Virus record (IMG/VR): IMGVR_UViG_2718217789_000003
From: a virus
Taxonomy: Duplodnaviria > Heunggongvirae > Uroviricota > Caudoviricetes
Direction: 5' to 3' (one strand)
Length of the DNA stretch: 64,000 bases
Positions 15,001 through 21,000 of this stretch are shown in pieces. Each line of letters begins with the position of its first letter. Position 1 is the first letter of the stretch. A program made the position numbers.

Positions 15001-18000
15001 CAGGAATCAAAGAAAAGAATTTCGATTAAGCAAATATCACTTCAATAAATCGCTTTTAAGGCATCACAATCGCTCTGTGGTGAGGTAAGCACGTGCAAGG
15101 TATACCGATAAGCAGCGAGAATGAAAAATGCGTCAGAATGCGTTTGAGGAGGTTTTAAGAAATGAGTACGATAGCTGAGCTTGTCAGGGCTAATTTTCGT
15201 GAAGAGTTGGTGCGTTGGTATCGGTATCGTTCATCGTCCAGTTTGCCGCTTGATGAGTTGTATGAGCATTCACCTGCCGCACGACGCTATCCGCGTGACC
15301 GTGTTCTTCGACGGTTGTTCAAACTCAACAATGAGTTTCAGCGCAACAGAATTATCCGGAGTCTGGATTTTAAGTGAAGGAGTGAGCATGAGCGACCTAT
15401 CATTAACCCAGCCAAAGCTAAAAGAATGTCCGTTTTGCGGCGGTAATGCTCGTCTGTGGGTTGAGGCCGGAATAAATATTGATGTGTGGGGCTATGCAGA
15501 ATGTGACCTCTGTGAAGCCAGGGTGGCATGGGCACCATCAGTTGCTGCGGCTACTGAAAAATGGAACCGGAGAGCAGGAGATGAAGCAAACCTTTCTGCT
15601 TCGCAACGAAGCAATCAGAAATAACGCCATAGACGCCATTCTCTCACTACCCATCGACGACAAGTCACCCCACGAAGTCCACGTTAAAGAACCCAAGCGC
15701 AGCAAAGCGCAGAATGACCGCATGTGGCCGATGCTGAACGATGTTTCGCGTCAGGTGCTATGGCATGGTCAACGGCTGGCGCCGGAAGACTGGAAAGACC
15801 TGTTCACTGCCCTGTGGCTTAAGACCAAAAAACTGGAGCAAAGAAGTGCGCCTGGTATCGACGGTGGCGTTGTCATGCTTGGCGTGCGTACCAGCAAAAT
15901 GCGAAAGGCCAGCATGACTGAGCTTATCGAAATCATGTTCTGGTTCGGCTCAGAGCGCAACGTGCGGTGGAGTGATGACTCCCGGCGAGAGTATGAATGG
16001 TCACAACGAAAAGGGAAGGCTGCATGACTATCAAATCAAATACGCCAGCACACGACAAGGACTGCTGGCAAACGCCGCTCTGGCTTTTTGATGCGCTGGA
16101 TATTGAGTTTGGATTCTGGCTGGATTCAGCTGCGAGCGACAAAAACGCTCTGTGCGCTCACTGGCTAACTGAGGCTGACGACGCGCTAAATTCTGAGTGG
16201 ATAAGCCACGGTGCAATCTGGAATAACCCACCGTACAGCAATATCAGGCCGTGGGTGGAAAAAGCCGCTGAGCAGTGCATACAACAGCGACAGACGGTAG
16301 TGATGCTTGTGCCAGAGGATATGTCTGTCGGATGGTTCAGCAAGGCTCTGGAGAGTGTTGACGAAGTTCGCATCATCACTGATGGACGGATTAATTTTAT
16401 CGAACCATCGACAGGGCTGGAGAAGAAGGGAAACAGCAAAGGCTCAATGTTGCTGATTTGGCGACCGTTCATCAGTCCTCGACGGATGTTTACTACCGTA
16501 TCCAAAGCGGCATTGATGGCGATCGGGCTGGGCGTCAGGAGGGCTGCATGAGGCGACAGCGACGAAGTATCACCGACATCATCTGCGAAAACTGCAAATA
16601 CCTTCCAACGAAACGCTCCAGAAATAAACGCAAGCCAATCCCAAAAGAATCTGACGTAAAAACCTTCAATTACACGGCTCACCTGTGGGATATCCGGTGG
16701 CTAAGACATCGTGCGAGGAAAACAAGGTGATTGACGTGATGATTTATTCGGGGCTATATTCCTCAAACGCCAGCAAAATCTGGCGTCGGGATTGGCGTCC
16801 TGGATAGAGACCGCGACAGATACACGCCGCGAGCGTGTTTTTTATTGTCGTATGCACGCGCACATCTGAATTATGGTGGGCTGTGTGGGGGCGGAGAGAT
16901 CCGCGCCGGTCGGTTTCCCGGTTACGCCAACCCTGCACAGTTCACCACCAGACGATTGGCGTCGTCGGTGGTGAGTTATTAAGAAACCACCAGAGGGCGT
17001 CATTATGACAACTAAAATTTCTGTTGAAACTCTCTCCCCGATCACCCATAACCAGATTCCTGTTATTACCACCGAACTTTTGGCGCAGCTTTACGGCACT
17101 GAGCCGGTGCGTATTCGCCAGAATCATCATGAGAACAAAGTACGCTTCGTTGAAGGGAAACACTTTTTCAAAGTTGTTGGTAATGACCTTAAAGAATTGC
17201 GGGTAGCTTTAAACTACTCACAAAATTTGCGGGTTACTTTAAGTAACTCACAAAATTTGCGGGTTACTTTAAGTAACTCACAAAATTTGCAACCATCTTT
17301 AAGAGGGTTACAAATTTCCCCGAAAGCCCGCTCCCTCATCCTCTGGACAGAACGCGGCGCAGCCCGTCACGCAAAAATGCTCGAAACCGATCGGGCGTGG
17401 GAAGTGTTCGAAAAACTGGAAGACTGCTATTTCAGTCAAAAAATCCCAGAACAACTTCAGCTTCCAGAATCAACACTATCTATCAACTACCCTCTCTCGT
17501 GGTTTTCAGAGCATCACCCCTACTCCATGATGAGCTATGTTGATCGAAAAACTCTTAACCTGGACGTTTCTGTGCTCTTCGATATGCCAAGCCCAACTAT
17601 GCGCATCCTCAACGAGCTACACAGCAAGGGCTATAACGTCGATGCAGCTGTCGCCGAATTTAACGCCTTCAAGCATCTGACGGAAGAAATGCGCCGTACT
17701 CTACAGGATATTTCAAGATTGTCAGATCGAAATTCCCGAAAAGGCTTCTCGTTAAGTCTTTAAAGAACAGATCGTTTGACAATGCTGCATTAACGGGGAT
17801 ATATTCCGCCTCATGGTGCTCAAAACACCTTAGCAAGTAGCGGTTACCGCGCCCGACAGACATGCGGTTTTTTTGTGTCCAGTCTTCTTGGTTTATGACC
17901 GGGCGTGCGGCTAATACAACACCAGCAATGGGAATATGCCCGCCGACTACTTGCGGTTTTGAGCGCCCGGTCACCCTCTCAAAAGGGGTAAATCAAAATA

Positions 18001-21000
18001 TCAAGTAGGACATAAAGCATGAAAACCATCTCCGTGGAGTCCCTCTCCATAATTTCATTTAGTAATATACCTGTGGTGACTACAGAGCTTCTTGCCAGCT
18101 TATATGGCACAGAACCAGATTACATCCGAAAAAATTTCAATCGGAATTCTGGACGATTTGTTATCGGTAAGCACTACTTTTTACTTGAGAATGAGGAGTT
18201 GCGCGAATTTAAGCACAGCATGTCTTTAAGACCTTCTGTGAAAATCGCCCGTAACGTTCGCTCCCTCATCCTCTGGACAGAACGCGGCGCAGCCCGTCAC
18301 GCAAAAATGCTCGAAACCGATCGGGCGTGGGAAGTGTTCGAAAAACTGGAAGACTGCTATTTCAGCCAGTGCGAGAAAAATACTGGCAAACAAGAGAAGA
18401 AGCTCAACGGGCTTTCCGCAAAAGAAACAGACAGCCTTGTATGGCTGTGGGATTATGCCAACCGCTCACAGGCATTGTTCCGTGAGTTGTATCCCGCATT
18501 AAAACTGATTCAGTCTGGCTATTCCGGCATATGCCACGACTACGGCTATGAGTTCTCGTATATCATCGGGAGGGCGAGGGGCGTTTTAATTAATCACACG
18601 CGGGATATAGATATTTATGAGCCTGACGGGCCGACGAACCTTCTGGCATGGGAAAGGCTTAAGAACAAAGAGTTGCCGCCTTCACTGCATCGCTACTGAC
18701 AATTGACAACTTAACAAACCCAGCTTCGGCTGGGTTTTTTATTGCTGAATTTTCAATGTGAGAGGACATGACAATGAATGAGCTGATAAATAGCAATGCC
18801 ATCAAAATGACAAGCATTGAAATCGCTGAGTTGGTGGGAAGCCAACACGGTAATGTCAGAATATCAATAGAACGTCTGGCAAAGCGTGGGGTGATTCAAC
18901 TTCCTTCAATGCAAAAAGTTGAAAATAAACAAACAATTAGCCCTAACAAATTCACAAGCGTGTATATATTCGAAGGCGAACAAGGTAAGCGAGACAGCAT
19001 TATTGTCGTCGCTCAGTTGTCGCCGGAATTCACCGCTCGCCTTGTTGACCGCTGGCGAGAACTCGAAGGGGCAACCGCGAAAATACCACAAACCTTTTCT
19101 GAGGCATTGCGCCTTGCGGCCGACCTTGAAGACCAGAAGGCTGAACTGGAGAAACAGCTTGCTCTCGCAGCACCTAAAGTTGAGTTTGCCGATCGAGTTG
19201 GCGAGGCCAGCGGAATTTTGATTGGAAACTTTGCAAAGGTTGTTGGTATTGGTCCAAACAAACGGTTTGCGTGGATGCGCGATCACAAAATCCTTATTGC
19301 TTCAGGTGCCCGGCGCAATGTGCCAATGCAGGAATATATGGATCGCGGCTATTTCACAGTGAAAGAAACAGCGGTCAATACAAATCACGGAATACAGATA
19401 TCGTTCACCACAAAAATCACCGGGCGTGGTCAACAGTGGCTGACAAGAAAGCTGCTAGATAACGGAATGCTTAAAGTAACAGGGGAGGCTGCTTAATGGC
19501 TAAACCAGCGCGAAGGAAATGCAAAATCTGTAAGGAATGGTTTCACCCGGCATTCTCAAATCAGTGGTGGTGCAGCCCGGAACACGGAACTAAATTAGCA
19601 CTCGAACGACGAAATAAAGAACGCGAAAAGGCGGAAAAAACAGCAGAGAAGAAACGACGACGAGAGGAGCAGAAACAGAAAGATAAAATTAAGATTCGAA
19701 AACTCGCCTTAAAGCCCCGCAGTTACTGGATTAAACAAGCCCAACAAGCCGTAAACGCCTTCATCAGAGAAAGAGACCGCGACTTACCATGTATCTCGTG
19801 CGGAACGCTCACGTCTGCTCAGTGGGATGCCGGACATTACCGGACAACTGCTGCGGCGCCTCAACTCCGATTTGATGAACGCAATATTCACAAGCAATGC
19901 GTGGTGTGCAACCAACATAAAAGCGGAAATCTCGTTCCGTATCGCGTCGAACTGATTAACCGCATCGGGCAGGAAGCAGTAGACGAAATCGAATCAAACC
20001 ATAACCGCCATCGCTGGACTGTCGAAGAGTGCAGGGCCATCAAGGCGGAGTATCAACAGAAACTTAAAAAACTGCGAAACAGCAGAAGTGAGGTTGCATG
20101 AATATCTACGAAAGAATTGATGGCAGCAAATACCGAAATATTTGGGTAGTTGGCGATCTGCACGGATGCTACACGAACCTGATGAAAAAACTGGAGACGA
20201 TAGGATTCGACACCAAAAAAGACCTGCTTATCTCGGTGGGCGATTTGGTTGATCGCGGTACAGAGAACGTAGAATGCCTGGAATTAATCACATTCCCCTG
20301 GTTCAGAGCTGTACGTGGAAACCATGAGCAAATGATGATTGATGGCTTATCAGAGCGTGGAAACGTCAATCACTGGCTGCTTAATGGCGGTGGCTGGTTC
20401 TTTAATCTCGATTACGACAAAGAAATTCTGGCTAAAGCTCTTGCCCATAAAGCAGATGAACTTCCGTTAATCATCGAACTGGTGAGTAAAGGAAAAAAAT
20501 ATGTCATCTGCCACGCCGATTATCCTTGTGATAAATACGAGTTTGGAAAGCCAGTTGATCATCAGCAGGTAATCTGGAACCGCGAACGAATCAGCAACTC
20601 ACAAGACGGGATCGTGAAAGAAATCAAAGGCGCGGACACGTTCATCTTTGGTCATACGCAAGCAGTGAAACCACTCAAATTTGCCAACCAGATGTATATC
20701 GATACCGGCGCAGTGTTCTGCGGAAATCTCACATTGATTCAGGTACAGGGAGAAGGCGCGTGGGCATAAGAGAACTAAACCTCACCAAAGAACAGCATGA
20801 GTGGCTGAATGGCTGGCTTGAACTGTGGGGCGCATGGGTTTATTCAGGTCGTCTGGAAAAGCGCATGAGCAGCGTAATAGCTAAATTCATGGAGAGCGTG
20901 GAGCCGGGAAGAGTTATGACAAGGCCAATGTGTAATGATGATGATGGAATGTTGATTTCTCAGGTCGTCGATTCCGTCATGTACATTGACAAGAAAGCCT

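Follow-up and report, generated by a model that had tools for sequence, protein, structure and literature searches.

A probable antisense-RNA control cassette of the C4 class upstream of the antirepressor-like gene antB in a lambdoid Shiga-toxin prophage

Introduction

The described systems closest to the locus treated here are the immI region of phages P1 and P7 and the isrK region of Gifsy-1. In immI, the C4 RNA controls icd-ant, and a single promoter is followed by two short sites (a1 and b1), the structured RNA, a second pair of sites (a2 and b2) at a ribosome site, and the antirepressor gene (Citron & Schuster 1990; Rfam RF01695 and RF03163). In Gifsy-1, where the order is isrK-orf45(STnc1160)-anrP (RF01394), a fraction of the transcripts ends at the IsrK terminator and the others run on into orf45-anrP; the long form is translationally silent, the short IsrK activates translation of the antirepressor in trans, and the processed RNA is STnc1160 (Hershko-Shalev et al. 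2016, PMC4825925). Here we describe the gap of 255 base pairs (bp) between the genes antA and antB (positions 17764-18018) in a stretch of 64,000 nucleotides (nt) from IMG/VR virus record IMGVR_UViG_2718217789_000003, called the window below, which is a lambdoid Shiga-toxin (Stx) prophage. It is likely that in this gap a self-contained cassette controls the antirepressor-like gene antB through an antisense RNA, and that it belongs to the class that comprises P1/P7 immI, P4, N15 and Gifsy-1.

The term "IsrK-C4 immunity system" links P4, P1, P7 and N15, and IsrK/seqA and C4/CI have been called structural homologues (Barquist et al., PMC3632133). The N15 antirepressor is likewise controlled by a small processed RNA. 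A separate RNA family, sRNA-Xcc1, was described in Xanthomonas, where the RNA is stable and about 88 nt long (PMC2996969); members precede an ORF6N gene in APSE phages (PMC7313666) and symE in integron cassettes (bioRxiv 10.1101/2025.06.18.660453). As related by citing papers, the prototype is integron-borne, controlled by HrpG/HrpX and trans-acting, with scattered predicted targets (Chen et al. 2011). The literature consulted on sRNA-Xcc1-family RNAs contained no statement of a C4-like way of working, no description of a leader motif and no mention of the present cassette in Stx phages, and no paper was found that combines "C4 antisense RNA" with O157.

A structured RNA of the sRNA-Xcc1 family

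The second half of the gap holds an 84-nt structured RNA (17897-17980, plus strand), a predicted C4-type antisense RNA that belongs to the Rfam sRNA-Xcc1 family. The match to the covariance model is full-length (RF02221, model positions 1-87 of 87), with 79.3 bits against a gathering threshold of 53. The closing helix has 9 bp (17897-17905 with 17964-17972). Hairpin 1 is a conserved module (UAAUACAA-N-ACC..GGGAAUA), hairpin 2 (17942-17957) carries the loop ACUACUUG, the joiner UUUUGAG is single-stranded, and a tail, ACCC, follows the closing helix. The whole RNA folds with z = -2.1. Its putative effector segment (17946-17964, plus strand) is made up of b', CUACUUGC (17947-17954), in the loop of hairpin 2, and the a' joiner, GUUUUGAGC (17956-17964), of which the single-stranded letters, UUUUGAGC, are complementary to both a1 and a2.

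The family was sampled with the conserved hairpin-1 pattern, which gave 120 IMG/VR stretches; after removal of false matches and duplicates, 60 distinct members were left. The helices of the RNA covary in this family. In an alignment of 55 sequences, 96.6% of the cells are paired (30-59% in slid controls), with 64 double-change cells against 14.8 in shuffles (0/500), and compensatory changes are seen in the closing helix and in both hairpins. Hairpin 2 alone is formed by at least 20 different pairing stems among the relatives. RNAalifold, run on a MAFFT alignment of the 55 RNAs, recovered part of the structure, as subfamilies with an insertion were misaligned, and it was replaced by the explicit pair count on the well-aligned helices given above.

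Two features at the ends of the RNA vary or recur across the family. Many members have an ATG exactly at the 5' edge of the structured RNA (17895-17897 in the window; ..UAUG/G..), which could be part of a processing site or the vestigial start of an upstream open reading frame (ORF). In L022, L024, L008, L046, L075 and L102, all from IMG/VR, the closing helix is directly followed by a T-run and lacks an RCCA-like tail; thus, in those subfamilies the RNA probably ends by intrinsic termination and not by processing.

Target sites flanking the RNA

Candidate targets of a' and b' lie on both sides of the RNA. Upstream, a predicted hairpin (a1; 17815-17829, plus strand) with the 4-bp stem GGUG/CACC presents CUCAAAA (17819-17825) in a loop that is complementary to a', and the arms 17815-17826 and 17956-17967 are 92% complementary. 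The b1 site, GCAAGUAG (17833-17840, plus strand), is the exact 8-nt complement of 17947-17954, that is, of b' in the loop of hairpin 2. Downstream, folding, repeat and pattern searches place a2 at 17974-17999 (plus strand) in two registers, the first a hairpin CCCU/GGGG (17974-17988) with CUCAAAA in its loop (17978-17984) and the second UCAAAAU (17993-17999). The b2 site, CAAGUAG (18002-18008, plus strand), overlaps the Shine-Dalgarno sequence AGGA (18007-18010) of antB, which has its ATG at 18019, and the 16-nt arms 17947-17962 and 17993-18008 show 81% complementarity. In the whole 64 kb there are four occurrences of the composite target TCAAAA..CAAGTAG, against 0.06 expected, all of them within the cassette.

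The loop of hairpin 2 is hypervariable between relatives on a conserved scaffold, and the flanking targets change with it. When a hairpin-2 loop is compared with the flanks of the same member, an exactly complementary stretch of 7 nt or longer lies upstream in 70% and downstream in 57%, whereas for non-cognate pairings the values are 2.4% and 1.6% (60 members). With exact stretches of 6 nt or longer, 45 of the 60 have a complement of their b' on both sides, and these 45 use 41 distinct loops. For a', 20 of 30 distinct segments have a matching a1 and a2 in at least one member. In 46 relatives, the median distance from the end of b2 to the start codon is 9 nt, and b2 often runs into GGAG. Energies of whole-segment duplexes, cognate against non-cognate, gave a real but blurred shift (mean z about -1.4), since stem bases pair promiscuously and relatives share a'; the exact-complement loop test was used in their place. 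This three-way covariation of loop and targets is observed directly.

Individual relatives show the same switch. L004, L012, L096 and L100 have a scaffold near-identical to that of the window and a different b', with b1 and b2 matching in each; in L004, the letters for b', b1 and b2 are ACUUUCGA / UCGAAAG. Phage Stx2a_F451 has a promoter almost identical to that of the window, and a', a1, a2, b', b1 and b2 have all changed together: the a1 loop CUGAACA goes with an a' of UGUUCA, and the a2 loop is changed to match. Acinetobacter phage 4316 keeps the whole layout, including the a1 and a2 hairpins, with a different b', before a KilA-N gene. The locus thus has the arrangement of a C4 cassette, in which a' and b' are complementary to a2 and b2 at a ribosome site, a second copy (a1 and b1) is found upstream, and b' and its targets switch together.

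In the relatives, most of the genes downstream of the RNA are of the antirepressor type. Pfam matches among 54 downstream proteins were Rha (12), Bro-N (9), KilA-N (8), ORF6N (8), AntA (5) and P22_AR_N (2), making 44 matches to antirepressor-type N-terminal domains. These six are the usual N-terminal modules of antirepressors.

Promoter and leader

A preliminary description of the gap had reported a promoter feeding directly into a hairpin and a T-run between two ORF6N paralogs, and had taken this as the sign of a short transcript or a regulated leader. Both elements are there, and Pfam confirms an ORF6N domain in both flanking genes. The sigma-70-type promoter (17776-17805, plus strand) scores 11/12, with a -35 element TTGACA (17776-17781), an 18-nt spacer and a -10 element TATATT (17800-17805), and transcription is predicted to start near A17813. 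In the Nil2 record (AJ413274), a "promoter by homology" is annotated at the same place. The whole window has two sites of at least 11/12 on both strands, against 0.87 in block shuffles; about one such site is thus expected by chance, and the promoter alone is not compelling. Its position recurs, however, in the family: a sigma-70-like site of at least 9/12 is found at the equivalent place in 28 of 52 related cassettes in which b1 was located, and many other relatives visibly have cTTGACa there.

The terminator-like element (17846-17874, plus strand; from sequence and folding) consists of the stem CCGCG/UGCGG (17847-17851 with 17863-17867), which has 5 bp, or 6 bp if A17846-U17868 is added, an 11-nt loop, CCCGACAGACA, and a run of seven U (U7; 17868-17874). 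A short stem followed immediately by a T-run is found after b1 in 45 of the 60 relatives, with 27 distinct stems that still pair, among them CCGCA/TGCGG, CCACA/TGTGG, CCAAC/GTTGG, GCCAAG/TTTGGC and GTCAC/GTGGC. Conservation reaches beyond the stem to the loop, CCCGAYAG. As stem and T-run are kept with compensatory changes across the family, the hairpin with T7 is a selected feature, although as an intrinsic terminator, with a stem of only 5-6 bp and an 11-nt loop, it is weak.

The leader of the family has a constant order: promoter, a1 hairpin, b1, "cgg", a short stem closing the CCCGAYAG loop, a T-run, a spacer of 26-90 nt, and the RNA. The T-run and the RNA are only 22 nt apart in the window, too close for a second promoter to fit between them; the structured RNA and antB would therefore have to come from read-through, and the terminator would have to be partial or leaky. 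The earlier picture of a promoter feeding directly into a terminator was in this respect overstated. What it had called a short transcript or a regulated leader holds as an RNA-based regulatory leader, promoter-proximal, carrying a1 and b1, ending in a hairpin and U-run and lying upstream of a structured RNA, and a predicted IsrK-like RNA of about 62 nt (17813-17874) that ends at the T7 run is plausible, as a counterpart to the IsrK RNA in the cassette upstream. This is only the first third of the device; the 84-nt RNA, the a1/b1 and a2/b2 targets and the duplication of an isrK-C4 cassette at 16731-16952 had been missed.

The Rfam isrK and c4-a1b1 models gave no match in 17806-17880 at E <= 1. 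For termination, only the stem of a hairpin should matter and not its loop. In the window (17846-17867) and in relatives (L006, L038 and others), the CCCG of the conserved leader loop is complementary to an invariant CGGG in the closing helix of the RNA. Pairing between the two was considered and rejected, as the flanking positions show no consistent covariation.

A paralogous cassette upstream of antA

A further cassette, which would control antA, precedes that gene (16731-16952, plus strand). It has a promoter (16731-16760, 10/12), an isrK leader with a1/b1 and a strong terminator that was called by the terminator scan (16767-16843, plus strand; Rfam isrK, 74.7 bits), a c4-a1b1 match (16754-16806, plus strand; 45.9 bits, just below the gathering threshold of 46.7) and a C4 antisense RNA (16869-16952, plus strand; Rfam C4, 66.7 bits). 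The two intergenic regions align in blocks in the promoter, in the leader (CGACAGA and the T-run) and before the RNA, and the two promoters are homologous, with TTGAC..CGGGG.TATATTCC in common. Thus, the 17764-18018 region is the second of two tandem paralogous cassettes, each before an ORF6N gene, and the antB cassette is a diverged second copy of the IsrK-C4 cassette immediately upstream.

The a' and b' letters of the antB cassette are unlike those of the upstream cassette, so each of the two antirepressor-like genes probably has an RNA control of its own. By duplex energy, orthogonality is clear for the first cassette and for a1/b1 of the second.

A 57-aa ORF (16835-17008, "ORF57" in Nil2) spans the C4 RNA of the upstream cassette and overlaps the start of antA as ATGA, an arrangement that resembles the coupling of orf45 and anrP in Gifsy-1. 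Tandem cassettes were also seen elsewhere. Near the left end of the Stx2a phage Stx2a_F451 (L124, positions 1500-2300; AP012532), two tandem sRNA-Xcc1-type cassettes precede antirepressor genes, one of the downstream genes being a pseudogene; the first cassette has the promoter of the window almost base for base, with other a and b letters.

Comparison with described systems

The antB cassette is most like P1/P7 immI. It shares the whole order from single promoter to a gene of antirepressor type, and its RNA has the plan of C4, with a long closing helix, two internal hairpins, and effectors in a loop and a joiner. As in P1/P7, the RNA is embedded in the mRNA and so would have to be processed from it. 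The heteroimmunity of P1 and P7, in which related phages differ in b' along with its targets, also has its counterpart among the relatives of the window. The differences are that the Rfam C4 model does not score the RNA of the window, that hairpin 1 is another, highly conserved module, and that the Shine-Dalgarno sequence which b2 overlaps is that of the antirepressor-like gene itself, there being no conserved ORF like icd between.

Gifsy-1 offers the parallel for the leader. Both have a promoter-proximal short RNA and a partly read-through terminator, the two being predicted in our case, and the Gifsy-1 short RNA is complementary to the structured region downstream, as is the leader of the window by its letters; moreover, the orthologous isrK-C4 cassette is in the same window, 1 kb upstream of the antB cassette. 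Unlike Gifsy-1, the antB leader has no isrK match and a much weaker terminator stem (5-6 bp, with an 11-nt conserved loop), and its partner RNA is of the sRNA-Xcc1 family and not C4.

With sRNA-Xcc1 of Xanthomonas campestris (RF02221), the RNA of the window shares the full-length covariance match, and the prototype too is on mobile DNA. The window and its phage relatives differ from that prototype in sitting upstream of antirepressor-type genes and in having flanking targets that change with the loop; no targets of this kind were found described in the literature consulted.

P4 (seqA-CI-seqC) and N15 (CA RNA) are similar in that a small RNA is processed from the leader of the operon it controls and has complementary sites on both sides. 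In P4 and N15, the RNA causes transcription to terminate prematurely; in the window, the downstream site overlaps a ribosome site, and the sole terminator-like element is upstream of the RNA. The sar RNA of P22, which acts on ant, also is a small RNA that restrains antirepressor synthesis in a temperate phage. However, sar is a cis-antisense RNA from the opposite strand, whereas the RNA of the window is on the same strand as its putative target and would make short loop contacts.

Proposed mechanism

Modelled on these homologous systems, transcription and its start site, partial termination, RNase P processing, translational repression and the decoy role of the leader can be proposed as follows. 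The near-consensus promoter would start transcription near 17813, and the leader would show a1 in a hairpin loop, then b1, then the weak hairpin with U7. A fraction of the transcripts would stop at U7, giving the IsrK-like RNA of about 62 nt, and the remainder would read through. The read-through transcript would contain the 84-nt C4-type RNA, probably released by cleavage of the precursor; the helix and ACCC end of this RNA resemble the tRNA-like RNase P substrate of P1 C4. Then b', in its loop, and a', as a single strand, would pair with a2/b2 on the same or on sister transcripts and mask the antB Shine-Dalgarno sequence, so that the gene would be transcribed without being translated. The free leader, with the same two targets, would titrate the antisense RNA and relieve repression, as for IsrK. 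Within the read-through transcript, the leader may also act as a competitor in cis and hold the RNA in a closed form; in the predicted fold of a 220-nt read-through transcript (-66 kcal/mol, z = -1.7), the leader pairs with a', b' and the 5' strand of the closing helix.

Several observations weigh against this interpretation. The C4 model (RF01695) gave no match at 17897-17980 (E <= 1), where the neighbouring RNA at 16869-16952 scores 66.7 bits, and sRNA-Xcc1 is not in Rfam clan CL00128. As the C4, isrK and c4-a1b1 models all miss this cassette at that threshold, it is placed in the C4 class by its architecture and covariation, and not by model membership. In print, sRNA-Xcc1 has been described as acting in trans and not as an antisense RNA within its own operon. 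The tail, ACCC, is unlike the ACCA or GCCA of many relatives. Pairing at a2/b2 is short, 6 + 7 bp around an internal loop, and at these sites the RNA's own downstream target and that of the neighbouring RNA are not separated by energy (-18.0 against -17.7 kcal/mol), so that orthogonality is argued solely from the differing a' and b' letters. A consensus terminator scan did not call the leader hairpin; the 70-nt leader folds at -12.3 kcal/mol, no better than shuffles (z = +1.07), and the isolated segment 17838-17876 folds preferentially into a competing GCGG/CCGC hairpin. Folded whole or in pieces, the leader gave z values of +1.07, +0.34, +0.11 and -0.25, and in view of these weak single-sequence statistics nothing was rested on thermodynamics. 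On the comparative evidence, the cassette is nonetheless judged to be a real, conserved and unannotated regulatory cassette of a known kind.

Alternative explanations

The processed RNA of P4 and that of N15 promote premature termination of transcription, and the antB leader could likewise be an RNA-controlled transcription attenuator, which we think unlikely. An antiterminator (GCGG 17840-17843 with CCGC 17847-17850) would compete with the terminator stem (17847-17851 with 17863-17867); the C4-type RNA, by binding a1/b1, would break the antiterminator and cause termination at U7, so that the cassette would limit its own read-through, an effect that could add to a translational block. The structures would allow this. 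The antiterminator begins on the base with which b1 ends, the two hairpins overlap at 17847-17850 and cannot form together, the GCGG/CCGC hairpin is the minimum-energy structure of the isolated segment, and GCGG-N3-4-CCGC follows b1 in most enteric relatives. However, this is invariance without covariation of the antiterminator: in L004 the terminator has become CCACA/TGTGG with the upstream GCGG unchanged, and the CCAAC/GTTGG subfamily retains "cgg" though the pairing is lost. Thus, selection is visible on the terminator stem and not on the antiterminator.

Translational coupling through an upstream ORF, as with icd in P1 and orf45 in Gifsy-1, seems distinctly unlikely. The statement of the preliminary description that the gap has no ORF is not literally true, since a 48-aa ORF on the plus strand (17862-18008) and a 101-aa ORF on the minus strand (17669-17974) are listed mechanically. 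The former is annotated as "antB2" in phage P13374, and translation of it, or of its 37-codon version (ATG at 17895), would bring ribosomes to the TAG at 18006-18008, where they could open the antB site. The ORF ends inside b2 and the Shine-Dalgarno sequence, 10 nt before the antB ATG, many relatives have an ATG at the 5' edge of the RNA, the 57-aa ORF at 16835-17008 overlaps the start of antA as ATGA, and coupling through orf45 has been demonstrated in Gifsy-1 (PMC4825925). On the other side, a stop-free frame with an in-frame ATG runs across the RNA in only 29 of the 60 relatives, with varying frames, starts and ends; conservation tracks the pairing of the RNA rather than codons; and no ribosome site is evident before 17862 or 17895. 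Nor was a conserved ORF found over leader and RNA in the 60 relatives, as a ribosome-mediated attenuator or leader peptide would have. The 48-aa "antB2" was therefore rejected as a conserved protein gene, although coupling through it could occur in this one subfamily, and the "antB2" of some phage records is most likely an RNA gene misread as protein.

There is a small chance that the RNA is the product of a trans-acting sRNA gene with targets in the host or in other phages, the promoter and T-run then being the antB promoter and the end signals of the upstream gene. The Rfam family has been described in this way, as far as citing papers relate (Chen et al. 2011), relatives are abundant stable RNAs, and a processed RNA would be diffusible and could reach co-resident prophages with the same b'. 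However, the composite target is confined to the cassette in the 64 kb, and the targets, placed at fixed distances on either side of the RNA, vary in step with the loop in 41 versions. Targets that track the loop in this way lead one to expect a local target in the operon and not a conserved target in the host. Finally, that nothing here is regulatory, the gap being a plain antB promoter with a chance T-run and chance inverted repeats, would fit the weak single-sequence statistics, but it is exceedingly improbable and is judged to be already excluded by the comparative data, namely the Rfam match well over threshold, the covariation of structure and of loop and targets, and a leader stem and T-run conserved across genera.

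Implications

A family-wide reading is put forward tentatively, as a possibility with the balance against it: the sRNA-Xcc1 family, handled in the literature as a trans-acting "virulence" sRNA, may be a second large branch of the C4/CI processed antisense repressors, with a decoy leader of its own (a1 loop, b1, CCCGAYAG stem-loop and U-run), and the tandem cassettes of Stx phages, with their differing a' and b' letters, may form an RNA "address code". This partner leader motif of sRNA-Xcc1 was not found described in Rfam or in the literature consulted. If the reading is true, the code would determine which of the antirepressors of the co-resident prophages can be made, and in polylysogens it would couple or insulate prophage induction, hence Shiga toxin release. 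An antirepressor can set off induction of a prophage even when the DNA is undamaged, and in Shiga-toxin phages induction means toxin production.

For the locus itself, the cassette predicts that antB is transcribed yet untranslated, held by a small RNA whose specificity lies in about 15 nucleotides. It also suggests a testable local function for the RNAs of the sRNA-Xcc1 family, which are now annotated by name only (in Xanthomonas, Xylella, Hamiltonella APSE and E. coli). The locus is of moderate interest, and the family-level reading would be somewhat more so if confirmed experimentally.

Genomic setting

The gap lies in the nin region of the prophage, in an E. coli host, and the gene order around it is NinB, a Dam-type methylase, antA, antB, roi, ninG, a phosphatase, Q and three tRNAs. 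The 255-bp sequence has 100% identity to Stx2c phage 2851 and to phage Nil2, and 98.4% identity to the copy in P13374, a phage of an O104:H4 strain. Among 5,426 complete E. coli genomes, 153 have the cassette, O157:H7 EC4115 being one of them. No feature is annotated at its position in the RefSeq E. coli genomes among the matches listed, and a tRNA/tmRNA search gave nothing within the gap region.

The putative regulated gene, antB (18019-18699, plus strand; so named in the Nil2 annotation), encodes 226 aa with Pfam matches to ORF6N (2.9e-19) and P22_AR_C (1.5e-23), and is thus predicted from its domain content, ORF6N with a P22 antirepressor C-terminal domain, to be antirepressor-like. In the interval between antB and roi (18768-19496), a strong terminator-like hairpin of 9 bp followed by TTTTATT is found at 18716-18737, which appears to seal the antB unit off from roi. 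Upstream, antA (17005-17763, plus strand) has an ORF6N domain (Pfam) and contains a 30-bp tandem repeat of 3.1 copies (17197-17290, 92% match) that encodes the repeated peptide LRVTLSNSQN within the ORF6N protein AntA; the repeat also gave spurious weak matches to miRNA families in the Rfam E-value scan.

Other structured elements are found farther away in the window. A match to the ALIL pseudoknot (577-693, minus strand; 121.5 bits), which we take to be a frameshift element of the IS3 family, suggests an insertion sequence near the start of the window, and a lambda cIII thermoregulator element is matched at 7878-7936 (minus strand; 88.5 bits). Just after Q, three tRNA genes (21562-21805) are labelled by ARAGORN as Met(CAT), Arg(TCG) and Arg(TCT); Stx phages carry an ileZ-argN-argO set at this position. 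Downstream of the tRNA cluster, at 23213-23424, there is a full-length match to the STnc100 sRNA (158.5 bits).

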